A stretch of DNA of 63,868 nt, filler included, from Stramenopiles sp. TOSAG23-6 (Eukaryota), in the NCBI GenBank assembly GCA_900128565.1. It is 16 parts of 16 records of this genome, joined end to end, with 100 filler letters (N's around TTAATTAATTAA, not from the genome) between each part and the next. Parts side by side here need not be neighbours in the genome. Positions count along the whole stretch, not along the records: positions 4,028 to 7,953 come from LT637324.1; positions 8,054 to 11,977 come from LT637325.1; positions 12,078 to 15,984 come from LT637326.1; positions 16,085 to 19,989 come from LT637327.1; positions 20,090 to 23,985 come from LT637328.1; positions 24,086 to 27,981 come from LT637329.1; positions 28,082 to 31,976 come from LT637330.1; positions 32,077 to 35,968 come from LT637331.1; 8 more parts are not named here. One strand, 5' to 3'. Both the position numbers and the translations under genes were made by a program. Positions 5,529 through 61,756 of this stretch are shown piece after piece. How positions within the stretch are numbered: the stretch's first letter is position 1; every line of letters begins with the position of its first letter. The notes beneath the pieces were generated by a model. The model searched no databases. It was not told the origin of the DNA and saw only the letters and a list, made by a program, of their open reading frames with translations.

Positions 5529-7882
5529 TTACTTACTTCTATTTTTTTTTGTGACATTAAAGTTTTTGCTATTATTTTGTCTTTTCCTAGTTACAGGTCT
5601 TGACACTTTTGATTCAGAGTTGTGTTCTCCCTTGATAGTTGTGGATGTTTTATCAACTGCCACTGATGCAGCAGCGCTTCTTATATGCGCAGCTAAAGCA
5701 GATGTTGCACCGACTTGCATGGCATGGACCATATCTTTTTGAACAGTCGTTGCTTGTTGTGCAAGTACATTTCTAATAGCATTTGAATCCGTCGGTGAGA
5801 ATACGGAACTTGATGGTCCTAAAACATTCTCTAAGCCCATTAAAGAATATGCCGCAGCATTATGCGGAGACTCTGGACTATTTTGTATCGGAGCGGGATT
5901 GGGGTTAGGGTTTAGGGCAAGATTTTGAGGAGACGGGAAAACAAATTTTCCAATGTTTGATTGACCACTTGAAAGACCAGCGAGCATTAGAAGTGTAGCA
6001 GGTGTTAGTTGTTCATGAGGTGTTTGACTATTTATTAGATCTGAACCTTTACTTGTTGCAACACTAATATTCCGTTGATTTGTTGTGCTAGTACGATTCA
6101 CAGAATCAATATTATCAAATGTAAAAGCCCTTGGAGACTTTGGGGTTTTCGTCATTGATGTTAATTTATTGACATTTGAGTTGTTTGAATTTTTTATATT
6201 CATGGTTTCATTTGTTTCATTTCGTTTGGCAAATAGAGGACTATTAGGAGAAGATGCTAACTTGAATAATTCAGATATTTGGGCATCAATACCTTGATTC
6301 TGCCCAGATGGGTCAACTCCATATAGACTTGGAACCCCACCATTGTTATCTACCATCAAATCTTTAACAAACGCATCTAATGATAATGGAGCCGCTGGAG
6401 CATTTATCATGGGTGGTGCATCAGGCATTACAGATAAACCTTTCCGCCCTTTTTTGGTAGAATGTATTGTGAAAAATTATTGTTAAATTGGTTTTGTTAG
6501 GTACGAAACTTTCATAATAAAAAACAAAATTAAAAAAAATGGAAACGTACATAGTTTGGTGAAATTAAATTGTACCACGTTTCTGACGAAGGTAGTAACA
6601 TTTTGCTATTACTATTTAAGTTATCTGTCTCCACTTTGAGTCTATCAACAAATTTCATTTTAGAGTGTGAAGATTCGCCTTTCTTTGTCGGGGTATTACC
6701 TGAAGGTTGGGGAGGAGGCCTTCGTAAGCGTCTACCGGTAGGACTTCGTTTTGCTGATGGCGAAAAGTAATGTGAAAAATATTTTTTTTGGTGTACAAAA
6801 ATTCGTTAGGGACAAAATTTTCATAATAAAAAATTAAATTTTAAATTAAAGTGGACAACATACAAGGGTCTTACTGACGAAGCTTCAGCTCCATCTCTAT
6901 TCAAAAGCGATACAAGTAATTGTGTATGGAGTTTAGCTTTATCCATAATTTCGATATTATTCATTTTAGTTTCCTCTACATTTCCTGAAGCACCACCACC
7001 ACCACTACCACTCTTGGCAAGTTTTAACATTTCTAGAGTTTTTGCAGTAGACATTCCCTGTATAGAACTTGTTGTGCCTGTCGATATGCCGCCAGATAGA
7101 GATGGATAACCAAGTTGTTGCATCATCTTAGGACTAATTTTATCTAGTGTAGTGCCTCCCTCTATAAGTGCTTTCAACAAACTTTGACGTAGTGCCAAGG
7201 GAGACGCAGCAAGTGCATCGACAATCGAATTTTTGTTTCCATACAAATCAGTCTGGATCGTCTGAGGCCTCTTCCCGTCAATATGTTTCTTTTTTTTATT
7301 CGTTGAGTTTTTTGCTAAAATAGTAGATTGTAAGAGTTTATAACATCTATGAAATAAAGCTGAATCTGACTCTCCGACGTTGTCTAAAAGTGAAGAAAGA
7401 TTTAATGATGTTGGCATATTATGTACGGTTCGCAGTGATTTATCTAAGTCTTTCATTGTAACTTTCTTTCCCTTTTGAGCACCAATCAGTTTAATCTTTT
7501 TTGACATTTCTTTCGCTACGCGGCGCATGTTACGTCTCATGGTTGAGTACCAGTGATTCTTTATTGCGTTGTCTGTTCGCCCAGGTAAGCGTTTCGCAAT
7601 CTCCGCCCATTTATTTCCAACTTCTTTTTGACACTCATAGATTATTGCTTCTTCCTCAGGACTCCAAGCTTCACGCTTAATTGTAGGATCTAAATGGTTC
7701 AACCATCGTGTGCGACATTGTTTACCTGTACGGTTTATACCATTTCTAATAAGATTTTCTAATTCCAGTGCGACATTCGACCATTTTTTTACACCAAATT
7801 GTTTGACTAGGCGTACAATTATCTCGTCTTCTTTTCTTGACCATGCACGCCTTTCGTATCTATAGTTAGATCCTTTCATCAT
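5529..7882 (-). CDS. R2R3-Myb transcription factor, 3 exons (7882-6864, 6764-6551, 6461-5529)
   Basis: WSRKED...[14 protein letters not shown]...[23 protein letters not shown]; three ORF pieces join in frame on removing introns 6863-6765 and 6550-6462. Confidence 0.9.
6462..6550 (-). other. Non-canonical intron, GT-AT (89 nt)
   Basis: AACTAT|GTACGT...GTACCTAAC...TTTTTCACAATACAT|TCTACC; join gives [21 protein letters not shown]. Confidence 0.8.
6765..6863 (-). other. Non-canonical intron, GT-TT (99 nt), repeat family
   Basis: CCCTT|GTATGT...CCCTAAC...AAATATTTTTCACATTACTT|TTCG; join gives [10 protein letters not shown]. Confidence 0.75.
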
Positions 7883-8115
7883 TTCAGTAAATTAATAATT
7901 CCAAATATATTTTATGGGATATTTGGAATAACAATCTAGCACAATTGTTCTAANNNNNNNNNNNNNNNNNNNNNNNNNNNNNNNNNNNNNNNNNNNNTTA
8001 ATTAATTAANNNNNNNNNNNNNNNNNNNNNNNNNNNNNNNNNNNNNNNNNNNNTTTTTTTTCGTACGAAATTTTGTACCTAACGATTTTTTTTTGAAATA
8101 TTTTTCTAAATACAC

Positions 8116-8300
8116 TTATGGCTAAAGACGTTCGCATCGCAAACGCTATTCTTGACAATAACTATCCTACATGCTCAAAAATTATGAGAGAGACATTATC
8201 TTTATATGAAAAAGCTGTTATTAAACAAGGAAAACAAGCTGATTATACTGAAGTTGTGAAACTTTTGGAAGATCTTTGTAGTGGTAATAAGCTTGAGTAG
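8116..8300 (+). CDS. Last exon of a 3-hydroxyisobutyrate/6-phosphogluconate-dehydrogenase-like protein
   Basis: LMAKDVRIA...G.QADYTEVVKLLE resembles the NAD_binding_11 C-terminus; preceded by a repeat-intron 3' end. Confidence 0.65.
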
Positions 8301-8390
8301 TGTTTGAAGATTTTTTTTGTAGTAGCAAAGCATAAAATCATCAAAGCATTACATTTTATACAATACAAAAAACAATAATCAACATCAATA

Positions 8391-10646: not shown

Positions 10647-10679
<33 letters not shown>

Positions 10680-11020: not shown

Positions 11021-11025
11021 CAATA

Positions 11026-11859: not shown

Positions 11860-12076
11860 GTACGTTTTCATTATGAATTTCAAATTTATTTTTCTTTTCG
11901 TACGAAATGTTGTACCTAACAATTTTTTTTTTTTTGAGTTTTTATTTCGATACGTTTTCATTATGAATTTCAAATTTNNNNNNNNNNNNNNNNNNNNNNN
12001 NNNNNNNNNNNNNNNNNNNNNTTAATTAATTAANNNNNNNNNNNNNNNNNNNNNNNNNNNNNNNNNNNNNNNNNNN

Positions 12077-13806: not shown

Positions 13807-15852
13807 TTATAAACCCAACACTTTTGCTGCATCATCCAACAATTGAAACGATTTCAGATATGATTTTGATTGTTGTTGTTGAAGCATTTCTTCAACAACA
13901 CCACCAACAGCACATGATTGAACTTGTCTAACAAAAAAAATATATATATTTTTACAATTTTGAACATTTGTTAGGTATGAAATTTCGTATGAATTTTTTT
14001 TTTAAATAAATTTGAAATTCAAAATGAAAATGTACCTACAAAACTCCTGTAATTGTGACGCATATGCATCTTCATATACTTTACAACATCCTCCATGATC
14101 AGCATCATATGGTTTTTTATAGTCATAGTATGAAAAAAATATTTTTTTTTTTCAAAAAAATACGTTAGGTACAAAATTTTGTATTGATTTTTTTTTTTTT
14201 TTTNAAAAAAAAATCGTATGTACAAAATTTTGTATTAAAAAAAAAANAAATGAATGATAATCACGTACATATCCATAGACAATTCCATCTACATTGACTT
14301 GTTGTACATAACTGTCATGTGATTTATGATAATCAATTTCAACATTTGAAGTTGAATATTCAGAATCATTAGGGTTAGGGTTATTTTTGAAAAAATGTTG
14401 AATTTTTCCTTTTAAATGTATTATCGAATTATTTGTATCAAATGAACTTGATGATGTACACCATGTAATCTTTGAATTTGGAAAAAGCCAACAAAGTAAA
14501 TCAATATCATGACAATACATTGAAAAAAAAATATTTCAAATTTGAGTTTTTTTTTTTGTTAGGTACAAAATTAACTATAAAAAAAAAATTAAATTTTTGA
14601 AAATTTTGAAAATTGTGATGAAAATGTACACACGAATTCCGTAATACAAATGACATATTTGTATCAGTTGGTACAGGATCAAATGAATGAATATAAATAT
14701 TTTTGGGTGCATTCTTTGTTAAAATAGCAGCTTTTATATATACTGTAAAAAAAATATTTTTCGATTTTTTTTTGAAATTTTTTATGTTAGGTACAAAATT
14801 TCGTACGAAAAAAAAAATATAGGAAAAAAAATTTATGTTGTATGAAAAAATACATGTCGATACAATCTGAGAAATTCTTTGTCAAATCTTCGATGAAAAC
14901 CAACCATTAAAGTTAAAGGAAAATTTGTGTTTCGTATTGCTTTTTCACGTGTTTTAGCAACTAAATGAAAATTTGTTACAGGTTTTTCTACCAAAACATA
15001 AATTGTGAAAAAAAATTTCAAAAAAACAAATTTTTTTTGTTAGGTACAAAATTTCGTATGAAAAAAAAAAAGAAAAATCAATTTCAGTAACATACATGTA
15101 ATCCAGCTTCAAGACATGAAATAGCTTGTTTTTCGTGTAATGCATCAGGTGTACAGATATACACTGCATTTACATGATTTGAATTATTCTTAATGTCACC
15201 TCTACTAAGGACAGATTCTTGAAATGATGAACCAATACATTGTGAAAAATTTCAAAAAAAAAAAAAAATTAGGTACAAATTTTCATACTTAAAAAAAAAA
15301 ATTCGAAATTGAATGTTAAAAACGTATCTAGATCTTGTAAATGGTGTCAACATTTTAACTTGTTTCGATAAGTATGTTCTACTTGGCTGTTTTGGAATAG
15401 CTTGTATAAATGTTCCAAAGGTACCATTTATCATAAAGAAATATTTCAAATGTTAAAATTTGTTAGGTACAAAAAAAAAATTCAAAAAAAAATTTTGAAT
15501 TTTTTTTTTTTTTTTGAAAAAAAAAATAAATTTAAAATTCATGATGTAAACGTACTGCACCGATAGGACGAATAGGAATGGCAAGATTTTGTATTGTACT
15601 TGAATTAGTGTATTCATCACCTGTTTGATTTTCCCATTTTTTTATATTTTGATGTGTCAAATTACTCAATTTTCTTTTTTTCAAATTTTGATTTTTCAAA
15701 TTTTCATCTTTTATTTCACTGACTTTAAAACGACACGTGTCACTATATTGAAGTGGTTGAAGTGGAACAACTTCACCTAATTGTTGTGAACGTGCTGCAG
15801 ATGATGCAACATATTGAGCTAAAGCGCAATCAGAGGCTGAAATTGGCCAACT
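13807..15852 (-). CDS. Gfo/Idh/MocA (inositol-2-dehydrogenase-like) oxidoreductase, 5'-truncated, 7 complete introns (15555-15426, 15327-15235, 15095-14998, ~14853-14738, 14629-14515, 14268-14125, 14035-13928)
   Basis: Joined exons give IGA|GTFG, AVYICTPDALH...EAGLH|VLVEKP, MVGFHRRFD, NSC|CHDID; 6 of 7 introns end in AT. Confidence 0.85.
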
Positions 15853-15929
15853 ATGTTATAATATAGAAAAATATTTTTTTTTTTTTTTCAAAAATTCAAA
15901 AAAAAAATCATTAGGTAAAAAATTTCGTA

Positions 15930-15966
<37 letters not shown>

Positions 15967-16180
15967 CATTTTAAATTCATAATGNNNNNNNNNNNNNNNN
16001 NNNNNNNNNNNNNNNNNNNNNNNNNNNNTTAATTAATTAANNNNNNNNNNNNNNNNNNNNNNNNNNNNNNNNNNNNNNNNNNNNATTTTTTTTCAATTTC
16101 GAATTTATTTTTCGTACGAAATTTTGTACCTAACAAATTTTACTTTTTTTTTTTTTTTGAAATATTTTTCCAAAATACAT

Positions 16181-22566: not shown

Positions 22567-22638
22567 ACCGATGTCGTATAGTGGTTAGTATCCCTGCCTG
22601 TCACGCAGGTGACCCGGGTTCAATTCCCGGCGTTGGCG
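22567..22638 (+). tRNA. tRNA-Asp(GTC)
   Basis: D-arm GTATAGTGGTTAGTAT, anticodon arm CCTGC-CTGTCAC-GCAGG, T-arm CCGGG-TTCAATT-CCCGG, downstream T-tract; 1:72 is A.C. Confidence 0.93.
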
Positions 22639-23833: not shown

Positions 23834-24149
23834 CTTTGGAATTTCTTTTTTTTCAAAATTTTTTGTGGCTACCGTACCATCATCATGACATTGTACGTAT
23901 ATACTCGGGTAGCAAATATTATTAATATCATAAAATTTCAGCCACTCGTTCCTCTCTTTTTTTCCGAAGAAAAAAAAAAGAAGCGNNNNNNNNNNNNNNN
24001 NNNNNNNNNNNNNNNNNNNNNNNNNNNNNTTAATTAATTAANNNNNNNNNNNNNNNNNNNNNNNNNNNNNNNNNNNNNNNNNNNNTACGAAATTTTGTAC
24101 CTAACAAATTTTAGTTTTTTTTTTTTGAAATATTTTTCCATTCTTACAG

Positions 24150-24912
24150 GCGTCCACTCAGAAAATTGTTTGGATTGGAATCCAACTCATTATTCTTCTA
24201 ATACATTTAATGTTTCTGTTGCGACATTAGTCGTTCTTCGAGGAAATTGTCTTTTCCGAGAAAACCCTAAACCTAATATAGAGAGTAAATGTAGTACAAG
24301 TTCAATTTCAAATTTTTCAAATGCCACCCCTCTGGAGAGAGATCATTTAGGAAATATCAGGCATAAAAATGTAAAAAATAATCGTAGAAATAGTCGAGGG
24401 GAAAATAACGAAAGAATATCGTATTTTTTTTTCAATTACGAATTTAATTTTTTTACATACGAAATTTTGTACCTAAACACAAACAAACAAAAAATATTTT
24501 TTCACAATATAGTGAAATAAATCGAGTCAAACAAAAATCAAAATGTGCCGAAGATAATAAAATATCTACACAATCGAAATATGAACAATTTAGTGAAAAT
24601 GTCGCTCAAGGTTTGTGTGCGTTCAATGATCCTCCATACCACACCACTTTTTCACGAAATTCATCAAATGCGCTTCGAGTATGTAGCTCCCCAATATCAT
24701 TCGGAGATCATGAAAAAAGTGTTTCTTTGGTGTCAAATTCACAACTGATTCTACCACCGATTCGCCGTGCTATTAGCTGTGCTACACAAATGTTTGATGC
24801 TCGAGCGTATCTGCACCAATACTCACAGCATGGTGTGGATGAAACAATGTTTGAGGAGACATTTATGGAGATGAATCAAATAGTGACTAACTATCAAAAC
24901 CTTTCAACCTAA
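24150..24912 (+). CDS. TUBD1: Delta-tubulin C-terminal exons (intron 24421-24512, GT-AG)
   Basis: VATLVVLRG...EKSVSLVSNSQ...QMFDARAYLHQYSQHGVDE..F. Confidence 0.8.
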
Positions 24913-27924: not shown

Positions 27925-28165
27925 AAGTATTTTGGAAAAATATTTGAAAAAAAATCTAAAAAAATTTGTTAGGTACAAAATNNNNNNNNNNNNNNNNNNN
28001 NNNNNNNNNNNNNNNNNNNNNNNNNTTAATTAATTAANNNNNNNNNNNNNNNNNNNNNNNNNNNNNNNNNNNNNNNNNNNNTATTTCAAAAAAAAAAACT
28101 TAAATTTGTTAGGTACAAAATTTCGTACGAAAAAAAAATCAAATTTGAAAAAAAATTAAACATAC

Positions 28166-28894
28166 ATGTGGGGATTTGCCCTGTTCGTGACACGTGTAAA
28201 TTACCCCAAGAGCAGTTCCGACATCTACTGTAGCCAGAGCGCCAGTATTACAGTGGTGTAAAATATTTGCCCCATTTGGAACAACAGAAGCACCTAACTC
28301 ACCCATGTACTGTGAAAAAATTTGTAGAAAAAAATCGTTAGGTATGGAATTTCGTACAAAAAAAAAATTAAAATTAAATTTTATAAGGTACATGCGTCGG
28401 TTTATCTGAATATCATCATTGGCAAGTTCTTCAGCTTTTTTGTATAAACAAGTGACAAAGTCCTCTGCAGTTAATGAATGTTTGAGAGATTTCGCTAGAC
28501 GTAGCATAATGCTAGTGGCCCATGTTAAATTTACTGCAGTTGGTCGGGCAGAATCTAAGCATTTCTTTGCTGTACATAAGATATTTCGCAAGTCGTCCTG
28601 TGTCACTGTTTCGGGGTTTTGTTTAAAGCAGCTTTGGGCTGCCAATACCATACCATACGCACCAGCCACTCCAATTGCTGGTGCTCCACGAACAATCATT
28701 GTACGGATCGCAAAGGCAGTTTCTTCATATGTCGTACAGGTGAATACTTCTAGCTTGGAGGGAAGTAAAGGTTGGTTAATCAAATTCAAGCAACCTTGAC
28801 CGATAATTTTTTTTCCATCCTTGAACTCCCACCACACCGATCGCTTAGCGATTGTAGACTCCGTGAATACTGGTGATGGCTTTGAGTAATCCAT
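28166..28894 (-). CDS. MRI1: Methylthioribose-1-phosphate isomerase, 3'-truncated; intron 28391-28305
   Basis: IRTMIVRGAPAIG, SARPTAVNLTWA, HHCNTGALAT..GTALGVI. Confidence 0.95.
28305..28391 (-). other. GT-AT intron (87 nt, stop-free 3n)
   Basis: CGCAT|GTACCT...ATACCTAAC...TTTTTTCACAGTACAT|GGGT; join gives INRRMGELGA; the internal CAG is out of frame. Confidence 0.85.
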
Positions 28895-30085: not shown

Positions 30086-31650
30086 ATGCGAAATTCAACT
30101 GCTATAGCAGAGAAAAAAATAGCCAAACTACCATCCAGCGTGAAATCACTCTTTCAGCAAGTAGTTTGGGCAAAACAGAAGAGCTACCCTTGGTGGCCAG
30201 CATTAGTGTTAAGTCCCCTCGACCTAAAGCTTTCTTATAAACAAGGGAAAGAATATTTGAAGAAGATGAACAAGTATTATTTTGTTATGTACTACGGTGA
30301 ACGCACCACGTGTTTGATTAAACACGAGATGATAAAACCGTGGAAGATGTTGAACGCGACTGATACACTCGCTGCGTTAGAAAAAGGTAGCCCGAAATCT
30401 AAGAATTTAGCAAAACAACTAAAGGTATCAATAAAGCAAGCGTTACACGAAATGGATTTCCCTGTGAATTTGATCTCTTTTCATGCGAAACGAACCTGTA
30501 ACTATATGGCAGCTCATGCGTGGGATAGTGAACCTTTGGAAATTAGTTCTACGAATAGTGGCACGTCTTTAGAAGGTCGAGTTGTGAGTATTTTTATCTC
30601 TAACGAAGAGTATGAAGGTGGAGGGTATGATTCTCTTGGATTTGTCAAGGCTTTTGATTCCTCCAAAAAAACAGATAAATATCTAATACGATATTTTGAA
30701 CTTGGACAAGACCCAGAAGAGTGGCTCGATCTTGGGGATGCGTCTAGAAAAGTAAAATTATTTCTAGATCCAAAAAAACAACAAAAAGAGAAGAAATGCG
30801 AAACCAAACAAACCAAAACAAAACTAAATGAAACATCTTCCCCTACTAGTGAAGACTTGGGGGAGTCTTTGAAAAAAGAAACTAATAAAGAAAAACACGA
30901 AAAAACTAACGAAAAAGAAAAAAACAATGAAAAAAACACTGAAAAAAAACAATATAACTAGTCCAGTAAAGTCAAATAATGAAGCGTATAACAGAATTAT
31001 GGAACGCCGCAACTCAGCCAAAACGGCAAGTAGTAGTAGTAGTAGTAGTAGCTCAAGCTCTTCAAGTTCAAGTAGTAGCTCAAGTTCTTCAAGTTCAAGT
31101 AGCAGCTCAAGTGATGATGATGAGCCGGTGCAAAATATCTCTAAAAAAAAGAAAAAAAAGAACCCTAACCCTAACAAAAATAAAACTCCAAAGAGAGGAA
31201 AGAAAAAAAAAGTGGATGATGGTCGACCAAAGCGACCACCTTCTGCATACTTAATATTCACAAAGAAAAATCGAACTCGTATCATTGAGGAAAATGAAGG
31301 TTTGAAACCAAAAGAAGTGATGTACGTTTTCATTTTTTTATTTTTGGTTTTCATACAAAATTTCGTACGTAACCAAAAAATATTTTTTTTTTTTTTTTTT
31401 TTTTTTGGTTTTCGTAAAAAAATTTCATACTTAATGAATTTTAAATTTTTGAAATATTTTTCATCAACACATGTCAGCCTTGGGGAGTGCGTGGTCTAAA
31501 CTTACCCCTGAAGAAAAACAACCATATGAAGAAGAAGCAAATGTGGCAAAGATTCAGCACGGTGTAGATATGAAAGAATGGAAATCTAAAAAGAAATCAG
31601 ATTTATCTGCAGAGAAAACTTTAAAGAAATTAAAGGAAAAAGAAGACAAT
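30086..31650 (+). CDS. PWWP + HMG-box chromatin protein; frameshift near 30930-30960 (A-tract) and GT-AT intron 31322-31472 within the HMG box
   Basis: VVWAKQKSYPWWPA; PKRPPSAYLIF...PKEVM|SALGSAWSKLTPEEKQPYEEEA. Confidence 0.85.
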
Positions 31651-31894
31651 GTACGTTTTTTTTTTTTTTTTTTTTTGAATTTTTTTTTTTTCGTACGAAA
31701 TTTTGTACCTAACAAAATATTTTTTTTTTTTTGAAATATTTTTCCAAAATACATTGAGACTTCAATGGCTGCCTTTTCAAGCAGAAGAAAAAGAATCCAA
31801 TGGATCTGTTGATGTGACTGTAATGAAAGATCTTTTATCAACCGAACTTGAAATGTTACGACTTTCCGTAGCAAAATTATACGTTTTAAAAAAA

Positions 31895-32164: not shown

Positions 32165-35100
32165 GATCCTAATGGTGGAACTAAAATAGGTAAATGTGTT
32201 ATTGAGTTACAGCGTCGACTTCCACTGGCACGTATTGTATATTGTTCAGCTACTGGTGTTTCAGATGTGAGTAATATGGCATTTATGAATCGTCTGGGTG
32301 TGTATGTATGTTTTATTTTTTTTTTTAACAAAAAAATTGAATTTTTTTTCGTACGAAATGTTGTACCTAACAAATTTAAGTTTTTTTTTTGAAATATTTT
32401 TGCAAAATACATGGAAAAGATACTACATTTCCAACATTTGATGACTTCAACAGTGCTTTATCTCGTAGAGGTATAGCTGCTCTAGAACTTTTAGCAATGG
32501 ATATGAAATCTTCTGGAATGTATGTTTCACGAGGTCTTGGTTTTGCATCCTGTGAATTTCGTCAAGTGGAAGCTNCTCTGTACGTGNTCAAAAATGAATT
32601 NTGTTTTTCTATCAAATTTTGTCACGATTTTTTTTTTTCACGAAAAAAAAAAAAAAAATATTTTTTCACAAAATATAACACCTGTACAAATAAAAATGTA
32701 TAATAATTGTGCTTCGCTGTGGTCTGATATAAAAACATCTATAGATAAAGCTATTTCTATAACGAAACAAAAAAAACATAGTAGAGTGTGGAATTCTTGT
32801 ACGTTTTCAAAATTGAATTTCAAATTTATTTTTCGTACGAAATTTTGAACTTTACANTTTTTTTTTTCCGTAAAAAAAAAATATTTTTTCACAATGCATA
32901 CTGGTCAAGCCATCAACGTTTTTTTAATCAACTTTGTCAAGCATTGAAGTTAGATATAGTTGTACGAGAATCATTAAATGCATTAAATAATGGCATGTCA
33001 GTTATTATAGGTCTTCAAAGTACTGGTGAATCTGGCTTGTTATATGCCTTGGAAAAAATAGAAAAAATNAATTTGAAATCGAAAGAAGAAGAAATAGCGA
33101 AATGGCGTTCACAATCTTGTTTACGTAATGTTTCTAACTCAAAAGTAAAAGATACAAAAAATAGTATACACACGAAGCAGCGGAATGTGAAACATTTATT
33201 AAAACAAGCAAAATTTTCTTCCTCTGTGAAAGTTGGTTCTTCGGGTACTTCTAATATGGTTAGTTTGTTAGAAAAATTCATTGAAGTTTATTTTCCTACT
33301 ATTACTGAAATTAGAACCAGAATTTTTCCTGGAAATGAAGAAAAAAACGTTGCAACGAAACAAATTGATCCAACTCATTATTTTGATTCTGATTCTGATT
33401 CTGAAGGAGAGTCCGATAAAGATTTAATTATAAATAGTGAAAATATTGAAAATATTGAAAATAGTTCGAGTAAGTCAAAAGATGTAGGATCATCAATGGC
33501 AAATACAATTGATATAATATCATGTAACTTAGTCGATAATGATGATGATGATGNTNTTTTACTATCAAAACATATACCTAAACAAATGCCACACGAAAGA
33601 GCACATTGTCTCCAATATCAATGGTCGGACAAACCTGCTGAATATCGTCGAGATTATATCTGTAATTCTTGTTATTGCTATGTGTGTGATATTCCAGCAA
33701 AAGAATGTAAAAAATGGTATACAATGGAACGACATTATAATGCTAGTAGTTGCACGTTTTCATTATGAATTTCAATTTTTTTTTTTTTCATATTTGTATG
33801 AAATTTTGTACCTAACGAATTTAAAATTTAAAGTATGCTTTCACAATATTTGTAGTGTCGTATGGCAAAAAAAAAGAAAGGATGCAAAAATTAAAGGTTC
33901 AACTACAACAGAGAAATTTCGTATCGAAAAATCTTTTGAATCATCCAATTTAGTAATAGATGTTAAAATACCAATGAATGCAGTTCCAGGTTCTCAATTT
34001 GATTTCTATCTTGATAAAAATATATATGAAGGAGTTGATCATTTGTCGGAAAAACAACGGAAATATAGTATCTCTGTTCCTATCTATGAAAAACCTGGAA
34101 ATATATTACGTACAAGTATCACCTATCATGTCCCAGTCACGTATCGCGTTTCAGAAGTATCTGTAGAATCATTAGTTAAAGAAAAACAATGTTTATTAGA
34201 TAGAGTAAAACAACTGTGTCTACCCCAAACTCCACTGGATAGTTTAATTAATAGACTTGGTGGACCAGATAATGTTGCTGAAATGACAGGGAGACGTCTT
34301 CGGGTAATTAACGGTGAAGTAAAAGTTAGATATGGAAGTAATTATAAAAATGGATCTCAAAGTTCTAAAGGTAATAATAAAGATTCACCAGGAGGTTCTG
34401 CTGACCAAACTAATTTGCGAGAACAACGTGAATTTATGAGTGGACAGAAAAGAGTTGCTGTTATATCCGATGCTGCAAGTACAGGAATATCACTACATGC
34501 TGCTCGTGCTTGTCTCAATCAGCAGCGACGATGTCACATTACATTGGAATTGCCTTGGTCTGCCGATAAAGCTATTCAACAATTAGGCCGGTCTCATAGA
34601 TCAAATGCAACGTCCTCTCCAATTTATACACTTGTAGTATCAAATCTCGCGGGGGAAAAACGTTTTATTTCAACTATTGCACAAAGATTAGAAGCTTTAG
34701 GAGCGATTACACGTGGTGATCGTCGAGCTTCGGGTCTTGATTTGAGTGAGTTTAATGTGGATGATTTGTATGGAAGAAATGCATTGGAGGCTTGGTATTC
34801 TGCATTAATTGATCATGGGTCTCTTCCTGTTGGTGTAAAGTGGTCAGAAGTCCAAAAGTTATGTTCAAGTTTACCTCCACCTGTATTGTCTACACAATTT
34901 ACAGGTAACACTAAAGATATTGAAAAAAATGAATGGACCCTCCATGCATTGTGCAATATTTTACGTGATAGTTTAGTCACTATGGGGGTCGCAAAGTGTT
35001 TAGATAATTTCGTGATTTCACAGAATTATTCAAAATCTGTATCAATTAGTATAGATAAAAAATATCGAAGAAATGTCAAAGTATTTTTAAATCGAATGCT

Positions 35101-35885: not shown

Positions 35886-36068
35886 GTACGTTTTCATTTC
35901 AATTTTGAATTTATTTTTTTCGTACGAAATTTTGTACCTAACGATTTTTTTTTTGAAATATTTTTTCANNNNNNNNNNNNNNNNNNNNNNNNNNNNNNNN
36001 NNNNNNNNNNNNTTAATTAATTAANNNNNNNNNNNNNNNNNNNNNNNNNNNNNNNNNNNNNNNNNNNN

Positions 36069-38930: not shown

Positions 38931-39230
38931 AGTGACAATTTACTGATATATGATCCTTGTCCTTATTTGTGGTTCCTGCGTTTAAAATTCTTCTCTTTCC
39001 TTTCTATATTATAAACATATGTAGATGGTACACATGGATTAAGGGGGGTACCGTTAGCCAAGGGGCAACAAACAAAACCGTTGTATTATTTTTAACAGCT
39101 AAAATTAACGGTCGTCGTCCGAAATCGAGGTCAGGTCAACATCAACAGTTTGGCTCTGCTGCGGTCAAAACTCAAAACAAGAACAAAAGCAAAACATCAC
39201 CAAAGAGCAACAAAAACAGTTAAAGTGAAA

Positions 39231-39740
39231 ATGCAAAGTAATGCTGAAGATGTTCGCGAATTTACAGCAGGCGCTGGTCAACCAACTCCGGATACTCCTG
39301 AATTGATGAATAAAACCGAAGTGAACTTTATCGGAAAGATGATTATTGATGAGTTACTTGAGCTTTTTTCGACTCAGTATGGAGCTAAAGAGGCAAAGTC
39401 TATCTTGTCTGGTTTTGTTCAGAATGCCAAGGAACTGCCACAAATGCCTACAAATACTAAAGAAGAACGTCTGGAACAATTGGCAGAACAAGGTGATGCT
39501 TTAGTTGACATTTATTATTATTCTCTCAACGCTGCATGTAAAAAGGGAGTTAATCTCTCCTCAATTTTCAACTGTGTCCACAAAGCAAATATGGCAAAGC
39601 GTGATCCAGCCACAGGAAAATTTCTCAAACGTGCTGATGGGAAAATTTTGAAGCCTGCTGGATGGAAAGCCCCAGATATTGCCGCAGAAATCCAAAGACA
39701 GTGTGATGAAGGGTCATTTGCAAAGCAAAACCAGTTATGA
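39231..39740 (+). CDS. MazG-like/PRA-PH family all-alpha NTP pyrophosphatase
   Basis: VREF...ELLEL...DALVDIYY...VHKANMAK...RADGKILKPAGWKAPD. Confidence 0.85.
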   Translation: MQSNAEDVREFTAGAGQPTPDTPELMNKTEVNFIGKMIIDELLELFSTQYGAKEAKSILSGFVQNAKELPQMPTNTKEERLEQLAEQGDALVDIYYYSLNAACKKGVNLSSIFNCVHKANMAKRDPATGKFLKRADGKILKPAGWKAPDIAAEIQRQCDEGSFAKQNQL

Positions 39741-39863
39741 TTATTTTTTTCTTAGGTACGAAATTCGGTACAAAAAAAAATGAAATTCATGGGTTAAGTG
39801 GTCCAAGGATCTGTGAAAGACAGATTTATCATATATACTATGAAATTGCAATGATTCCATAAT

Positions 39864-39955
39864 ATTATCTCTAATAAAAATTGACTTCAATCTATATTTT
39901 TATTATCTCTAATAAAAATTGACTTCAATCTATATTTTTATTATCTCTAATAAAA
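39864..39955. repeat. ~38-bp tandem repeat (TATTATCTCTAATAAAAATTGACTTCAATCTATATTTT), ~2.5 copies to scaffold end
   Basis: Direct inspection. Confidence 0.85.
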
Positions 39956-40139
39956 NNNNNNNNNNNNNNNNNNNNNNNNNNNNNNNNNNNNNNNNNNNNT
40001 TAATTAATTAANNNNNNNNNNNNNNNNNNNNNNNNNNNNNNNNNNNNNNNNNNNNAAAAAAAATTGTTAGGTACAAAATTTTCAAAAAAAAAAAATTCGA
40101 TTTTTTTTTTTTCGAAAACAAAAAAAAAATAAAACATAC

Positions 40140-41445
40140 ATTGATTTCAATCGTTCAATATCTTGTGCATATTCTTTTAATAATCCACGTTTTGTTAAAC
40201 GTTTATTCACTTCTGGACGATTTTTAATTGATTTTGCTTTAATTGCATATTCAAGTGTACTTAAAGTTTCATCGACTGAGAGTAGTGAAGGTGAACAGGT
40301 AGCAATATATTTTGAAAAAATATTTCAAAAAAAATCTAAAAAAATCGTTAGGTACAAAATTTACTATGAAAAAAAAAACAAATTCGAAATTTAAAAAAAA
40401 ATAAAACATACATGATACAGGCTTTTGCACGCCCACCTAATGACTCCTGTAATAATCGTGTCAATTTTGAATCACGATATGGTACATGAGGTGAATTAGA
40501 CACTAAAGCATTAATTACACGACCAAGAGTTAATAATGATTGATTGATTTTTTTAGCTTCTCTTTGTCGACTTCCCGTTGCTCCAGAACGACCAGCACAT
40601 TCTGAACCTGCTAAATCGACTAAATGTAATTTTCCAACTTTTAATAAATCTTCACCATCTGGCATTGTTTCTTTGATATGTACAGTAAGTGTAAATAGAC
40701 AATGTGATCGACTTGATTTTTCATTCATAATTGTTCCAGCCACTTTACGTTTTCTCATTGCATAACGCATGACTTTATATAAAGCATCGGGCGATTGAAC
40801 ATGAACTTCTTCGAGGTTTTGACAAAAGATTCCTTTACGTTTATCATCGACAATACGAAGACGTGGAGCTGCAGAAGCTTCAACGGGTTCAGAATCAGGG
40901 TCATTTGTCGCTTCACAATTAGCAACTCCTTGTAACAAATCTTCTAAAACTTCATTATAAAGTTCTAAATAAGACACTTTAATTGTATACTCTGCATTCT
41001 TTGCTTCAAGTTGTTCAAAAATGCTAGTTACACAACGAGGAATTACACCCCAATTATCACGGGATTCCATATCACCTTCCATTGTGAAAGTTTTACCTGT
41101 ACCTGTTTGACCATAGGCGAAAACAGTACAGTTAAAACCATCGAGAACTTCTTCAACTAGAGGTTGTACAGTCTGTTCATACACTTCCTTTTGCGTTGCA
41201 TATTGACCAAAGACATTATCATATTTATAACGCTTTGTATGAGTGCCTTCGGAAGACTCGTCTTTACCATTCTTTTTCCGGCGTTTTAATTGCACGGATA
41301 TAAGACTCCGAGAACTGTCAGCGCTAACTGAAGAAACAGTACACGTACTCTCTTCTTTGTCATTGAGAGGGCGAACCCGAACAACAACTTTTACATTTAC
41401 TGCTTTTGCATTAGAATTTTCAGACTGACTTGAAGATGTCGTCAT
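40140..41445 (-). CDS. Kinesin-5 (BimC/Eg5-like) motor, 3'-truncated; GT-AT intron 40411-40305
   Basis: [61 protein letters not shown]...ETLSTLEYA. Confidence 0.95.
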
Positions 41446-41787
41446 TTCTATTTAGATTACACAACAAATAGAATAGTGTCCTCAAGAGAAAATCTAATCC
41501 CTCGTAAAATATGAGCTAGATAAACAGATTTGTTTTAGTCGAATTGAATTGATGTTTCGTTTTCAAACACCATTCGAAAAAAAAACTTTTTCAAAAATCG
41601 AAAAAAAAAAACACAAGGATTTCGTGTTTGCTTTGCGATTGATGTCAGTCAGAGATCTGTCAGTACGAAGTCGAAAACACACAACAACACAACAACACAC
41701 ACACAAAAGTAAAAATACAGTGTACTAATTACACGCTGCGATTGATATAGAAAGTGTATGATACATTTAGATATTTATATTTAAGCT

Positions 41788-46513: not shown

Positions 46514-47034
46514 AGACGTTTATACCAAAAAGTATAAAAAAACGTGTGAAATCTTAAAAACATTTATGCGCAATTGCTCCGCTATGAAAAATGGAATCTG
46601 TTTTTCGATCTTTTTGATTTTTGAGACATTTCTTTGAGTGTGTCTGAGTGTTAAATATAATATAAAAACCATTTTGGAACAAAGCTGTTATTGATACACA
46701 AAATTCCATTCCAACCATGTACTCCATGTTATCAATTTTCAGAAATGATAAAACCAAACAAATTATTGATATACGTACAAGATTATTGACAATATGAATA
46801 AAGAATAATTTTCATTGAAATAAAAAATTTTATGATGGGAATTATACCCAGTATATAATATATACAAAGCTAACAACTACTAATTACAGAATATCAGCTT
46901 CATTTGTTTCTGTAGTACTTCATCCTACTAGTAAACACAAAATTTAGTCACACATTTGGATCACATGTAGTGATTGACGTATTAATAGTATTAATAGATT
47001 CCGTAGCAATTTTTGTACCTAATTTAAATTTTCA

Positions 47035-47068
47035 TTAGGGTTTTAGGGTTTTAGGGTTTTTTAGGGTT
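47035..47068 (+). repeat. Interstitial telomere-like (TTTTAGGG)n, ~4 copies
   Basis: TTAGGGTTTTAGGGTTTTAGGGTTTTTTAGGG. Confidence 0.65.
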
Positions 47069-47069
47069 C

Positions 47070-47866
47070 CTACTCTACTAAAGCTGACACATTTGGATCA
47101 CGTGACAAAGCTTCGCCCATTTTAGCAAATCCACTTCTTCTTAATAATTGTGAAAATTTTTGACCTACATCAGCTGCTTGATTGGATGCTCCATTATACA
47201 CAACAGCTCCTGAAATAATATCATCCACTTCTGAATCATGAACTGAACCAATCGTATCAACAAATTCACTAAATGTGACAACACCTGTATTTGATGTGTC
47301 TGCTTCAAAAACCATTTCAGCAGCTTCATCATATGTCATCGGAATCCCAAGATCAAACATGACTGTAAGAATTCCATCAATATCAATTGTTGAATTAATA
47401 CTTACAACGCCATGAGTTGGCTCTGCAAATTTGCCAAAATCACGTTCAACTTGTTCTTCTAATTCTTCTTTCTTTAAAAATCGTGACATCATAGAAACAA
47501 AATTACTAAAGTCAATATGGCCTTTACTATCAACATCCCATTTTCTAACTAAAGCTTGTAACTCTAGAGGCGTTTCTGGGTGTCCGACGCTAGTCATTAA
47601 TGACGATAAACTCTGGGCTGTTAATGCCCCATCATCAGCAAATTTAGTAAATACTTTATATAGATATGTCATTTGTCCATTGCTTAAAGGTTGAAGTTCC
47701 AACAGCTCAAGAATACTAATAAATTGTTTCTCGTTGACCAACAATTCACTTCTACCACTCGATATTCCACAAAATTCATTTTGTTTTTTAACATTATTAT
47801 GTAGCCATGACATGACCTGCATCATTTCATCGTCTGTAGCAAAGGTACCAAGATCCATCAAAGCAG
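47070..47866 (-). CDS. Last exon of an EF-hand (calmodulin-like domain) protein
   Basis: DVDSKGHIDFSNF, DTSNTGVVTFSEF; preceded by intron end CCAAAACACAT. Confidence 0.8.
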
Positions 47867-52081: not shown

Positions 52082-53885
52082 ATATGCAATAGTCACAAAT
52101 AAAGGAAATAATTCAGATAAGGCCATCCAAAATAAATCTTGATCATATGCAATTGTTGGCATTCCTAAAAAGCCCCGAATATCCATGACTCCTGCTCCTG
52201 TATATGAAATTCCTAAAAAAGTCGATTCTGGAAAATTTTCAATTTTGTTTTGTTCTACAATCCAATTATCAATTACAGCTTGTAGGGTAACAAAACCACT
52301 ACGGAGATAATCATTAACATACCCTGTTCTCCCTTTCTTTCCATCATGTATTGTGAAAAAAACACGAAATTAAAAAAAAAAAAAAAAATCGTTAGGTAAA
52401 AAATTTTTTTACCAAAAAAAAAAAAAATCAAAATTGAAAAAAAAATAAAACATACATTGAGGTCCAGCGGAATGAAAAATAACTGCAGCACCAATAACTT
52501 GTCCACTATACCTGTACCCAGGTGATTGTACAAAATGATCCCTGTAGTGTGAAAAACAAAAATAGGAAAAAGTTGTTTGGTACAAATTTTCGTATGAAAC
52601 CAAAAAAAAAAAAAATTCTATAAAAAATTTCTATAAAAAAATTATTTTTTTCTTAGGTACAAATTTTCGTATGAAAAAAACATTCTATAAAAAAAAAACA
52701 TACATGTCTTCCTCTGTCCACAATCCCTCTGCTGGGAAATTCTTACCACTTTCAAAGTCATCATCAGAGAAATCATCAGGATGTTTTAAATCTCTATATG
52801 TTACTTTTATATCCAATGCTTCTCTAAATGATGAATAGTCAGGTAAGCTTTGTAATAAATTATTGTAAAATGTCTTAGCAGCCAGTTTTGTTCCATCATC
52901 TGCAGATTTTGGTGTTGTGATGAGCAATTTTTGTACTGGACATAATTTTTTGATTAATTTTGCTATATTCATTATATTTTTAGCTTTTGTAAAATCAATC
53001 TCGATTAGTCTTTGTACTAATTCGCGTTGTAAACATTGTACATGAAAGTTAGCTCCCCCATTATGTAAAAACAAACTTCCCCAACATATATTGTGAAAAA
53101 ATATATATTTTTTTTTTTTAAATTTGTTAGGTACGAAATTTCGTACAAAAAAAAAAAAAAAAAAAAAAAAAAAACATACCTCTAGGACGCAAGTCTGCTT
53201 TATTTTCTAGCCGATTTTGAAAATGAGAGACTTGATTTCGAATATTATCAATACCATACACGGAACAACGTGGATCGCCTGGGAAAAGAGGTGGGAATGT
53301 CTTTGATAATGATGTAGAAATTTTTGCGATTGTATCAAAGCCAAGAGATTCAATTAGTTTTGATCCTTGTACTGTCGTCTTTGCACGTTTAAGAAACTCA
53401 GCTTGTTGTTCTGGCGGCAAATCATCCCAACCTCGAAGTCTTGTACCATTGAGAGTGATATCAATATATTCCTGAAGGAGTTGAGTGGCAACATCTTTTA
53501 ATTTTGGGTTATCTTCGACTATTAAACAAACGTCACAACAGAGTAAGTTACGCTGCTCGAAATCAGCGAGTGGTGGTATATCTGAGCTCAGAGCTGACAC
53601 ATTTCGAACAGCATCTCTATGTTTCACATGGATCAAATCACGTAGAGAAACAAGTACCATGAGCAAAATAGGCATTGCAAGTATTTCTGATAGAGCAAGA
53701 GGCCAACGACGCTTTTTTAGTTTGCAATTTTTCCAAAACATTAAGGAAACATTACGACGAGAGCACCCACAGAATGAGTAGCAACGACAGTCATCCGACA
53801 AGTCATTTCTATACCAGGCGGACTTCCGCCGTTGCGCAAACGGTCTCATTGACTCGTCATGCTCATCCATATCATTTAAATCCAT
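52082..53885 (-). CDS. ABC transporter subfamily A, N-terminal part; introns 53179-53086 (GT-AT), 52703-52542 (GT-AG), 52455-52346 (phase mismatch, exon probably lost), donor at 52081
   Basis: LMFWKNCKLKKRRW...EI..P; YLRSGFVTLQAVID. Confidence 0.85.
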
Positions 53886-54394
53886 CAATGATGATGTATA
53901 GAGATTTCATTACAAGTTGTAGCAAACACAATGTTGTTTCTAGTTGGACTATATGATATGAGATGATGGATATATAGGTAGTAAGGCCAATATATAGATA
54001 CGATGTGTTCCATCAGCCATTCAAATCAAATTCGAGTCAAAAATTTTTGAAAAAAAAATTTAATCTATTTTTGACAGCTGCGGCATAGCATATAATAAAC
54101 ACGAAATAAATATAAAACAGTTTCATTTTTTCCGGATTCATTCAGCGAGAAAGCCGCCGATTTGGGATTATTGACCTCCTGAAGACAAATTCTGGAATGT
54201 GGAAGAATTAATTTTTTAGAATATTGTGTTGCAATGTTGCACCAGATGACATTGTCACAAATGAATCACATATATTGCTATTCATCGTATTAATATATAC
54301 GTACCATATTGAACACTGATATTGATTAGTGTGTCAAAAGCTTCCTATCGTTGATTGAAGCAATAGTTGATTGAAGCAATAGTTGATTGAAGCA

Positions 54395-55644
54395 ATGGAA
54401 GAGGAATGCACTGTATGTCGTAGTACATCCTTTTACGAAAATGAGATTGGAGAGCTTGTTTGCAATGAGTGTCAGTCTGTCTCTTTGCAAGTATCTCAGG
54501 CCAATGTTGAAGTCGAACTCGATTTAGGAAACATTGGTCGTCAAGGTCCTTTTGGTGTTGGTATTTTATCTGCTAAAGGGAAATCGGAAGCGAAACGAAG
54601 AAGAGATGAAAGTGGAACAAATCGAAAAGAAAGTTGTTCATTGACTGCCAAAGCCTGTCTAGAATCATTCCAATGGTTACTACATCAGCAAGCATTACAT
54701 CTCACTACTCAAAAAGGTTGTCATTCACGCCTTGTACCTACAATGAAACAGCTTTGGTTAAGGTATGTACGATTTTTGTTCCATCCCAGTCTTGCACATA
54801 AAAGTTGTACAACATCAAATACGTCTAGTACTCAGAGGAGTGGTGTATCTACACACCAACAACAAACAGATCCATCTTCTTTCCTTGATAATCTATCATG
54901 GTTGACTCAAAATGATGATGTTGTATCAAATTCTCAATCATCACAATTATCAAGTCATGTAAATGTTTCTTCTTCAAAGCATCAGTTACCTCATACCACT
55001 AACCCTAATTCCAACCCTAATTCCAACATGAGACAAATTGAAAGAAAAATTCTTTCTTGGTTTTCTGGTCAGTTTAAAAAAAATAGTAATAACACAAAAT
55101 GTGGAAAAGAAAAATCGAGGTGTAATGATCGTGTACGTTTTCATTATGAATTTCAAATTTATTTTTTTTTTTTTTGGTTTTCGTACGAAATTTCGTACCT
55201 AACATTTTTTTTTTTTTTGAGTTTTTTTTTCGATACGTTTTCATTATGAATTTCAAATTTATTTTTTTTTTTTTGGTTTTNNNNNNNNNNNNNNNNNNNN
55301 NNNNNNNNNNNNNNNNNNNNNNNNNNNNNNNNNNNNNNNNNNNNNNNNNNNNNNNNNNNNNNNNNNNNNNNNNNNNNNNNNNNNNNNNNNNNNNNNNNNN
55401 NNNNNNNNNNNNNNNNNNNNNNNNNNNNNNNNNNNNNNNNNNNNNNNNNNNNNNNNNNNNNAATTGAATTTTTTTTTTTTTTTTTTTTTTTTCGTAAAAA
55501 AAATCATAATTTTTTTTTAACCAATTTGATTTTTTTTTTTTTTTTTCACAATACATATTATGGCTGCACAAATATGTCGCTGGGCAAGGTCTGGTTCTAT
55601 ACCATTTTTATACGAGAATACATTTCGATGTATGCCGAAAAAAT
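54395..55644 (+). CDS. TAF1B/Rrn7-like Pol I initiation factor, fragmentary
   Basis: N-terminal CxxC...G.LVCxxC zinc ribbon; FQWLL..QA...KQLWLRY; later exon IMAAQICRWARSGSIPF. Confidence 0.7.
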
Positions 55645-57410: not shown

Positions 57411-57414
57411 GATC

Positions 57415-59988: not shown

Positions 59989-60022
<34 letters not shown>

Positions 60023-60098
60023 GATAATAAAAAAACTGTTAGGTACAAAATTTCGTACGAAAAAAAAATTCAAAAAAAAAAATTAATTTTGGAAACAA

Positions 60099-60575
60099 AC
60101 TTTGTTTTGATGTCCATCCCAAAGTGAATGCATTCATTTGGTCCACATTAGCAGTCATTGAAATCCAATTTTGATCATCTGTTGCAGTGTTTGGTTCACC
60201 ATCTTTTGATAGGTGAAATAAATTTTTATTTTCCATTGCATAATTCATTTTATCGGAACAAAGCACAGAATTGTCCAAAACATAATCTAAATTATCAACA
60301 TTGCTAAATACACCAATAGAAAGATTCTTATATTGTGCAGGTGCTTGAATAATTAAATCTGCAAAACCGATTTTACCACTACCAGGTGGAACATATGCAA
60401 ATTTACCTAAAACACGAAAGCAATCAGATGGTCCTGAGCCATATATTTGAATATTTTCAGGTTCAATGATAATCGAATGTACTGCATCTATAGAAAAAAA
60501 AAGAGCATACAAGATGAAATATGTCGTTAATTTGTGTTTCTTTTTACCATGACCAAGTAAAGCTATGTTTTGCAT
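60099..60575 (-). CDS. First exon of a secreted/membrane protein, possibly GPR180/TMEM145-like (mirror copy 63282-63758)
   Basis: Signal peptide; FRVLGKFAY; ends at a repeat-intron copy. Confidence 0.5.
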
Positions 60576-60965
60576 ATCGAAGTATTGTGATTACAATAGT
60601 CTTCTCTGGATCAAATCTAAATAGTTTGATAGTACTATGTAAAGGTTGGTAATAGTTGTAGTTGTAGTTATAGTTGTAGTAGTATTAAAAACTATACTAG
60701 TATATAGATTGAAGTAGTATGTGAATAAAGTAACCGTCGGTCCGTTTTTTTAAAAGTTTTTTGTAAACAAAGTATAAGCTAGGGTTAGGGTTTTTGTTGT
60801 ATGACTGACTGTTTGATTATTCGAGAGAGCATTTCGAGAGATTGTGAAAAACGTTGTTATTCCATTGTTTTCACATACGTACTACTACGTATTCATATGA
60901 ATCGTATCTACATGTAACACTAGTGTAATTGTAAATATTTCATTGTATTGTGTATTTGATAGAAA

Positions 60966-61756
60966 ATGTCATCATCATCGGTACTTGAGGAAAATAAAAA
61001 ATTCTCTGTCAAAGAATTGAAAGCAATCATTGTTTCTCATGGTTTTTCATATACTGATTGCATAACAAAGAGTGATTTGTTGGAAAGAGCCACAGAAGCT
61101 CAACGTAATCCACAGAAAGAAACAAAAACAGCAAGTATTCCAACAGTCCAAACGTTTCATCAAAGTCAACAAAAGATTGGAGTGTTTGACTGTGAAGTTG
61201 TAAATACATGTTCTGGAGATGAATGCGACTTTGCCATTGTCTTTTTTCATGGATACAACGCTTCCGCTGCCAACTTTGCACCTTTAGCCAAAACACTTGG
61301 GAAACATCCCATATTATCACATAGAGCTCAACGCATTCGCTGGATTTTCCCTCAAGCGAGTCCAAAACCTGAATGGTGGCCGCTTAATTTGATGGAATGG
61401 CAAATGGCCATGCTTGTAGGTTTTTTTTTTTTTTTCATTTGTTAGGTACAAAATTTCGTACGAAAAAAAAATTTTTCATTTTTTTTTTTGTATACAATTT
61501 CATACTTAACCACTAAAATTTTTTTTTTTTTTTTTTGAAAAATACAGTCAGGTACTGATGCCGTAGGTAAACTTCTACGAACAACTCCTGAAGGATTTCG
61601 TGTTGCATCAACAAAAAGTTGTCAATTTATTTCGGATGTAGCACAATATTTAAAAATACCTGTATCCAAAATTATTATTGGAGGGTTTAGTCAAGGAGCA
61701 ATGATGTCAGTTGAAACAGCTTTGTCTCATACTGAACAATGTTTAGCTTTATTAGT
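60966..61756 (+). CDS. Phospholipase/carboxylesterase (acyl-protein thioesterase-like) with N-terminal SAP-like motif; intron 61416-61547 (GT-AG); mirror copy 62101-62891
   Basis: SVKELK.I...G..Y..C..K.DL; IVFFHGY, WIFPQA, WWPL, IIIGGFSQGAM. Confidence 0.88.

Follow-up and report, generated by a model that had tools for sequence, protein, structure and literature searches.

Introners of the protist Amoebophrya, as set out in the available part of the account by Farhat et al. (2021; PMC7789003), carry direct repeats of 3-5 nucleotides (nt) over their exon-intron borders and inverted repeats of 8-20 nt that form hairpins; they show no dominant terminal pair, U1 small nuclear RNA (snRNA) was not found, and standard gene prediction fails. 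In Fritillaria borealis, introns derived from miniature inverted-repeat transposable elements are mostly AG-AC and AG-AT according to the accessible portions of PMC11282704 and PMC13326754, the first of which also describes introners that take one splice site from a target duplication and yet are canonical. Here we describe a family of introner-like inserts in a window of 63,868 nt from Stramenopiles sp. TOSAG23-6 (GCA_900128565.1), the whole stretch of DNA that was analysed. The inserts interrupt genes in sense orientation, must be removed exactly if the encoded proteins are to be rebuilt, mostly end in AT, and are probably spliced by the major spliceosome.

Micromonas and Aureococcus are reported, in work attributed to Huff and co-workers from 2016, to contain introners that form canonical GT/GC-AG introns with a 3-nt duplication, and the U2-type AT-AC introns said to have been described in 1997 by Wu and Krainer and by Dietrich and co-workers are a non-GT-AG pair that the major spliceosome processes. 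The available part of a study of Physarum (bioRxiv 10.1101/2020.10.12.336362) reports non-canonical U12-type introns, amounting to less than 1% of introns, of which GT-AT forms make up 17% and AT-AT forms 8%; U12-type introns there start with RTATCCTT or RTATCTTT and have their branch motif 9-12 nt from the end.

The initial annotation of this window knew of no GT-AT-dominated system. Literature searches gave no description of a GT-AT-dominated introner system, no paper with the phrase 'GT-AT introns' and none pairing 'introner' with 'marine stramenopile', with the proviso that supplements may hold splice-site tables. The terminal pairs themselves are nevertheless on record, GT-AT and AT-AT as rare variants of Physarum U12-type introns and AG-AT as a common form in Fritillaria, in the accessible portions of those sources. 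A paper on single-cell genomes of marine stramenopiles (MAST) gives few genes for two MAST-3 assemblies and, in its available part, uses 'intron' twice and 'splice' not at all; splice sites are not mentioned in the corresponding part of a 2026 preprint with further MAST-3 genomes, and an introner survey, by its available text, retained only families with RNA-backed odd splice sites.

A single family of introner-like inserts

The inserts are copies of a single repeat family, about 90-160 nt long, which the initial annotation had not recognized. Its core TTGTACCTAAC, with at most one mismatch, occurs 38 times against 1.1 expected, a number that none of 100 shuffles reached. An nhmmer profile built from nine copies, which match it by construction, gave 64 hits at E up to 1, 39 of them with E <1e-3, over 13 of the 16 contigs of the window; raw motif counts take the copies on the palindromic last contig (59989-63868) twice. 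A copy starts with GTATGT or GTACGT and continues through T-runs, (CGTACGAAATT)TTGTACCTAAC, A/T runs and ATTTTT(C)CA(C/A)AATAC to its two last bases. The 5' end is GT in 23 of 25 visible cases (GTATGT in 11, GTACGT in 7), with one GC and one AT, and in the 19 copies with a correctly set tail the distance of CCTAAC from the 3' end is 33-47 nt, a T-run preceding the end (judged by motif only). The earlier description of U2-like donors and a CTAAC motif combined with a mostly non-AG 3' end is thus confirmed. Among 28 visible 3' ends, found as regular-expression tails with three corrected by hand and two copies added later, AT accounts for 18, TT for three and AG for six, in line with the AT 15, TT 2 and AG 5 of 22 counted at first; the one unclear end stops at 8115, directly before an ATG. 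The pair GT..AT is found in 13 of the 21 complete copies.

The window consists of 16 unrelated contigs of falling size (3927 to 3880 nt) linked by N44-TTAATTAATTAA-N44, at 3928-4027, 7954-8053 and onward, so that neighbours across a linker are not genomic neighbours and no gene can span one. The span 5529-61547 originally given cannot therefore be one locus, and the generalization that introns in this genome mostly end in AT holds for the inserts, that is, for one family in 16 unrelated contigs. GC content is 27-39%. In the last contig two arms of 1940 nt each (59989-61928 and 61929-63868), 100% complementary and without spacer, form a perfect palindrome; this contig is probably an amplification or assembly chimera. 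By protein similarity the source organism appears to be a MAST-3-type marine stramenopile, since the closest named protein to the kinesin of the window is a EukProt gene model labelled GSMAST32 (P0001), residues 269-319 of which are 100% identical to translated 40273-40121. Beyond the introner family almost no introns were seen: the kinase, GluRS, WD40, NSUN5 and DRG genes and that for a 957-residue coiled-coil protein are each single-frame. An Rfam scan of the window found a tRNA gene at 22567-22638 (+) as its sole match and no snRNA, and domain searches of the window did not locate the TUBD1, ABCA and esterase genes named in the initial annotation. A TTTTAGGG-like run lies near 47030-47070.

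Thirteen public runs contain part of 32000-41500; two 'organism A' runs hold 0.90 and 0.89 of its words, seawater metagenomes up to 0.72, and five RNA libraries 0.06-0.19. Summed contig depth on the element core (28082-28211, 29512-29771 and 31332-31461) reaches about 72,800 in the seawater metagenome X3 and about 13,000 in two RNA-type libraries, and on the exons it stays in single figures. By this disparity the samples contain the family, or its relatives, in very great abundance. A 22-nt core scan of JGI metagenome contigs gave no matches; a 17-nt core scan of IMG/VR gave six, only two of them with weak nhmmer hits (E ~0.004), and locus L001 was not a copy. Ten copies are cut by contig ends, assembly breaks falling within the repeat. 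Variants of the element at 11860-11977 (+) and 55148-55280 (+), of the form GTACGTTTTCATTATGAATTTC.. core ..GAGTTTTT..TTTCGA followed by a second 5' end minus its G, represent copies in tandem or composite arrangement that break off at assembly gaps (two contig ends). One insert differs in length in another population, 29601-29645 having 45 letters in the window and four in X3 record 11; indels between the window and X3 concentrate in the non-coding 29881-29967.

Exact removal and the register of the cut

All 25 copies in ten Pfam-named genes lie in sense (Myb 2, FIBP 1, Gfo/Idh-like 7, MSH6 2, MRI1/IF-2B 2, HMG 2, SBNO 5, kinesin 2, EF-hand 1 and Rrn7-like 1), an arrangement with a chance probability of 2^-25, and the earlier statement that copies inside coding regions are sense is correct. 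Read-through of any insert meets a stop within 3 to 84 codons. In 14 of 15 non-AG copies exact cutting leaves each side with 40 or more open codons, against one of 15 when the 3' cut is shifted by +1 and two of 15 when it is shifted by +2. The complete copies, with their terminal bases, the bases before them and the state of their junctions, and those cut by contig ends are as follows.

6462..6550 (-), insert in the Myb-domain gene: GT..AT, AT before; phase 0; 85 + 310 open codons; Myb Pfam hit upstream
6765..6863 (-), second insert in the Myb-domain gene: GT..TT, TT before; phase 2; 342 + 77 open codons; phase chains to the next insert (214-nt exon)
13928..14035 (-), last insert in the Gfo/Idh-like gene: GT..AG, AG before; product continues to the common C-terminus of the homologues
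14125..14268 (-), insert in the Gfo/Idh-like gene: GT..AT within a 3-nt TAT repeat; YGY|DY matches the homologues, and a cut 3 nt earlier adds a residue present in no homologue
14515..14629 (-), insert in the Gfo/Idh-like gene: GT..AT (or TG..TA), GT before; NSC|CHD junction
14743..14853 (-), insert in the Gfo/Idh-like gene: AG end; an exact GT-AG cut leaves 17 + 20 open codons with the frame off by one base; frame kept only with an insert of 110 or 113 nt (110 used in the homologue alignment)
14998..15095 (-), insert in the Gfo/Idh-like gene: GT..AT, AT before; EAGLH|VLVEKP gapless against six homologues; upstream exon ends at 88/120 of Pfam GFO_IDH_MocA
15235..15327 (-), insert in the Gfo/Idh-like gene: ATACGT start and AT end (AT-AT); no border repeat
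15426..15555 (-), insert in the Gfo/Idh-like gene: GT..AT (or TA..TG), CA before; RPIGA|GTFG aligns with two homologues
24421..24512 (+), insert in an unnamed gene: GT..AG; 111 + 132 open codons
26732..26823 (-), insert in the MSH6-like gene: GT..AG, AT before; phase 0; 386 + 48 open codons; MutS domains on either side
28305..28391 (-), insert in the MRI1/IF-2B-family gene: GT..AT, AT before; Pfam IF-2B profile continues across
31322..31472 (+), insert in the HMG-box gene: GT..AT, AT before; two cores; HMG_box profile continues across
31651..31754 (+), insert before a TGA in the exon frame: GT..AT; directly adjoins the TGA, so that frame is uninformative
32306..32412 (+), insert in the SBNO-like gene: GT..AT; Pfam AAA_34 profile continues across
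32799..32899 (+), candidate insert: GT..AT, TT before; N's upstream, junction putative
33752..33851 (+), insert: GC..TT, TT before; phase 1; 64 + 684 open codons; phase chains to the inserts on both sides
40305..40411 (-), insert in the kinesin-5 motor: GT..AT, AT before; Pfam Kinesin and homologues
52346..52455 (-), insert in an orphan gene: GT..AT; 54 + 109 open codons; one base out of phase with the upstream insert
52542..52703 (-), insert in the orphan gene, two cores: GT..AG, AT before; 167 + 43 open codons
53086..53179 (-), insert: GT..AT, AG before; phase 1; 242 + 132 open codons; no homologue found
Copies cut by contig ends: 28082..28165 (-), 8054-8115 (+), 16085-16180 (+), 24086-24149 (+), 27925-27981 (-), 32077-32164 (+)
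Further copies cut by contig ends: 35886-35968 (+), 40056-40139 (-), 47867-47929 (-), 52017-52081 (-), 56004-56058 (+)

Pfam profiles run without a gap across all four testable non-AG junctions. At the kinesin junction the profile reaches position 300, the split codon supplies 301 and the match resumes at 302; HMG_box is matched from 1 to 31 before the junction and from 34 to 69 after it, with two residues between; IF-2B is followed to 94 and, after three residues, from 98; and AAA_34 leaves off at 240 ahead of the junction and is picked up at 241 beyond it. Against 119 kinesin homologues there is no gap column at the junction, and the isoleucine of the split codon is isoleucine in 112. With its seven inserts removed, the Gfo/Idh-like gene yields a product of 416 residues that has no stop and shares its C-terminus with its homologues, which were collected by searching one exon against a 50%-identity library (nine hits); identity to six of them is 38-47% over 238-348 columns. 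Outside homology backs nine of the 16 complete non-AG junctions, and open frames by themselves back a further five. The five junctions quoted in the initial annotation (GLH|VLVEKP, KACI|IATCSP, RLGVY|GKDT, NSC|CHDID and EVM|SALG) are present in the sequence as it stated. The view that the inserts behave as introns is thus supported by their sense-only orientation, their restoration of frame and the position of their junctions within conserved motifs.

The two bases before the insert are the same as its last two in 12 of the 21 complete copies (AT/AT 9, TT/TT 2, AG/AG 1) and in 11 of 16 non-AG copies. This repeated dinucleotide, which had gone unremarked together with the ambiguity that results from it, looks like a 2-bp target-site duplication. 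Because the flank repeats the last two bases, many boundaries admit two or three equivalent readings: where the flanks are equal, GT..AT, TG..CA or AT..AC cuts give identical mRNA and the label 'GT-AT' is not forced, and six of the 14 complete AT-ending copies are readable as AT-AC. The AT-ending boundaries originally proposed hold at three junctions where homologues exclude a cut shifted by -2, but are ambiguous at many others. At 15327-15235 only the unshifted cut gives TRSSG, with a serine found in all five homologues, and the other shifts from -3 to +3 give isoleucine or arginine, so that the homologues pin this copy as an AT-AT intron. At 14629-14515 the unshifted cut gives cysteine, as in five of eight homologues (valine in two, methionine in one), a shift of -2 giving a tyrosine that none of the eight has; the NSC|CHDID motif is in this way borne out. 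At 15555-15426 a shift of -2 gives aspartate, where the homologues have serine or alanine. Where AT, TT, GT or GC has replaced the preceding AC, the last two bases are still AT, and the bases before the insert vary (AG, GT, CA, TC, TT), as exon bases may. A predicted cut before GTAYGT and after the last dinucleotide is the best reading, because of the unequal-flank junctions, the constant terminal AT and the variable preceding bases.

Two further features of the genes concerned may be mentioned. The Gfo/Idh-like gene (13810-15855, -) seems to encode the latter half of a protein with two domains; its upstream open reading frame aligns with the middle of a 620-residue homologue (P0129) that has a further Gfo/Idh domain in front. 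Two coding exons carry an exact (CCCTAA)2 on their sense strand, at 14369-14380 (-) and 31163-31174 (+); the repeat encodes NPNPN there and may be a telomere-repeat scar inside genes; the NPNPN stretch of the Gfo/Idh-like gene is an insertion relative to all eight homologues.

The agent of removal

We think it probable that the inserts are an introner-like family, spliced exactly and most likely by the major spliceosome with an AT 3' site. On this account young, abundant, short non-autonomous transposon-like elements would have inserted into many genes of an AT-rich, intron-poor MAST-3-type stramenopile. Each copy would bring a T-rich tract, a donor of yeast-like type (GTATGT or GTACGT) and, 33-47 nt from the end, the branch-like motif UACCUAAC, and the last two bases of the excised stretch would repeat the two bases before the element, mostly AT, sometimes TT and once AG, so that the element and one copy of the dinucleotide would be removed exactly from the pre-mRNA. 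The major spliceosome is taken as the probable agent because GUAUGU/GUACGU, UACCUAAC and the U-rich tract are yeast-like major-spliceosome signals; it would cut before the G of GTAYGT and after the duplicated dinucleotide, at a 3' site AT whose last base is U, and a few copies may have changed this T to G and now end in AG. An altered spliceosome in this organism is plausible. Complementarity at the seven terminal positions of the copies holds in 81% of cells (28-66% when slid), which fits the short inverted termini of a DNA element.

Several observations weigh against this account. Reads from one DNA run and three RNA runs were placed on the N-free contig 8 (28082-31976). Of the 37 joints 15 were listed, none of them exon-exon; RNA cover, close to nil on HMG exon 2 and on most exons, was too sparse for a test of splicing. 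The only RNA contigs reaching any junction are X7 record 22 and X8 record 30 (X7 and X8 being two RNA-library runs of one sample), and both run from HMG exon 1 into the insert, for 46 nt to 31368 and for 21 nt to 31343 respectively; unspliced RNA or DNA carry-over would produce this pattern, and the X7 and X8 libraries look DNA-like. A one-base discrepancy affects two exon links (14853-14743; 52703/52455), and in the orphan gene, on contig 14, the inserts at 52703 and 52455 are not both removable in the standard register. Empty insertion sites were not encountered, which leaves the duplication as one that we infer; the match of TT ends with TT flanks has p ~0.03 by hand calculation; and the inverted termini are as short as about 7 nt. 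Further UAU or CAU triplets occur downstream of the branch motif and ahead of the proposed cut; AT alone therefore cannot define the 3' site, and the conserved tail must help.

Relative to the DNA run, introner and other bins stand in similar proportion in two 'RNA-Seq other' libraries (0.7 and 0.3), and in a poly-A library introner bins are about 85 times rarer than other bins, a comparison that is a rough guide, contig depth being a poor measure. Joints in X3 that link different introner copies were rejected as repeat artefacts.

Removal by the minor spliceosome, with U12-type machinery tolerant of GT-AT and AT-AT, is unlikely. The family shows the same pairs as Physarum's non-canonical introns of U12 type, its 5' end and internal motif are unusually constant, and GTATGTTTT is one base away from the Physarum GTATCTTTT. 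However, the ATCC of RTATCCTT is present in none of 25 copies, a T-rich tract precedes the 3' end, and CCTAAC lies well outside the 9-12 nt of Physarum. The usual distance of a U12-type branch motif from the 3' end is about 10-20 nt.

Structure-guided, non-spliceosomal removal, as proposed for the introners of Amoebophrya and for the non-conventional introns of euglenids, is quite unlikely. The layout of short direct border repeats and complementary termini resembles that of Amoebophrya, and the end dinucleotide varies (AT, TT, AG). Against this, RNAalifold found no consensus pairs in 13 copies and so gave no support for an RNA helix between the ends, the terminal complementarity is without covariation or compensatory change and not above shuffles, and spliceosomal-type donor and branch motifs are conserved.

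We regard as improbable a cut placed two bases upstream, by which the duplicated AT would be the 5' end and the terminal AC of the element the 3' end of an AT-AC intron. AT-AC is an established compatible pair, and for the six copies noted above the mRNA would be the same, but the other eight complete AT-ending copies would become AT-AT, AT-TT, GT-GT and similar, variable bases (AG, GT, CA, TT) would form the 5' splice site, GTAYGT would be two bases out of register, and at three junctions the shift of -2 gives residues absent from all homologues.

It is likewise improbable that the inserts are unremoved or imprecisely removed and that the interrupted genes are decaying or low-yield. The RNA-library contigs that enter the HMG insert and the two one-base frame conflicts would agree with this, as would the searches for transcript-derived proteins: among the longer proteins searched the Gfo/Idh-like exon had no transcript-derived product, the kinesin exon found nothing near-identical save the mis-built model P0001, and the orphan exon 53181-53906 found no homologue. 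A PDB sequence search with two exons gave no hits. On the other side stand the sense orientation of all 25 copies with intact frames, the exact rebuilding of conserved motifs in the kinesin-5, MRI1, HMG, SBNO and Gfo/Idh-like genes, and the finding that three of the four coding differences between the MRI1-family gene and its counterpart in the second population (X3) are synonymous, although these are small numbers.

That the AT ends are single-cell assembly errors is extremely improbable: N's, the palindromic chimera and the two frame conflicts show that the assembly has faults, but AT is common to 18 separate copies, and the AT end of the MRI1-family insert is not an error of this assembly, because record 10 of the independent metagenome X3, which covers 28142-28350, has no difference listed at 28305-28306.

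Consequences and comparison with described systems

If the cuts are as proposed, this would be a further lineage with mass non-canonical introns, and the first found with textbook donor and branch signals and yet a U as last base; it would isolate 3' splice-site choice as the sole altered step, a question of long standing, and would provide a transposon making introns whose 3' end is its own target duplication. A bolder proposal, which we hold to be possible though not quite probable, is that the major spliceosome of this organism routinely finishes behind U rather than G, so that a 2-bp AT-duplicating transposon could have seeded thousands of GT-AT introns with occasional AT-AT and GT-TT forms, the first base, G or A, perhaps pairing with the terminal U in place of the G-G contact; this would amount to a genome-wide rewriting of the 3' rule with the 5' rule intact. 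On the practical side, gene callers bound to GT-AG mis-build genes of this genome, as illustrated by the kinesin gene (40121-41445, -), for which the public model P0001 runs on into two inserts (one giving ..KSMYVLFFF), the conserved IATCSP being left out. This may distort the gene counts and 'pseudogene' calls made for such single-cell genomes.

With the U12-type introns of Physarum the family has the GT-AT and AT-AT pairs in common, but the 5' motif and the branch distance do not fit. The U2-type AT-AC introns offer a reading for six of the 14 complete AT-ending copies, which homologues exclude at three junctions. Amoebophrya is likewise a marine protist with repeated intronic elements, direct border repeats, complementary termini, non-GT-AG ends and genes on which prediction fails; unlike it, the present organism is a stramenopile whose inserts have a constant GTAYGT 5' end, keep CTAAC, have a 3' end dominated by AT and are predicted to form no hairpin. 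In Fritillaria the introns are transposon-born, as the present ones probably are, with inverted termini and target duplications (both putative here), a 3' end set by the insertion site and AT common at that end; the 5' end in our family is canonical (GT), in contrast to the non-GT ends of AG-AC and AG-AT introns, and introns of the Fritillaria type go with duplicated, divergent U2AF subunits. The introners of Micromonas and Aureococcus are short, non-autonomous DNA elements, each supplying one splice site of its own and borrowing the other from the target-site duplication, as those described here probably do, but here the apparent duplication is 2 nt, giving AT.

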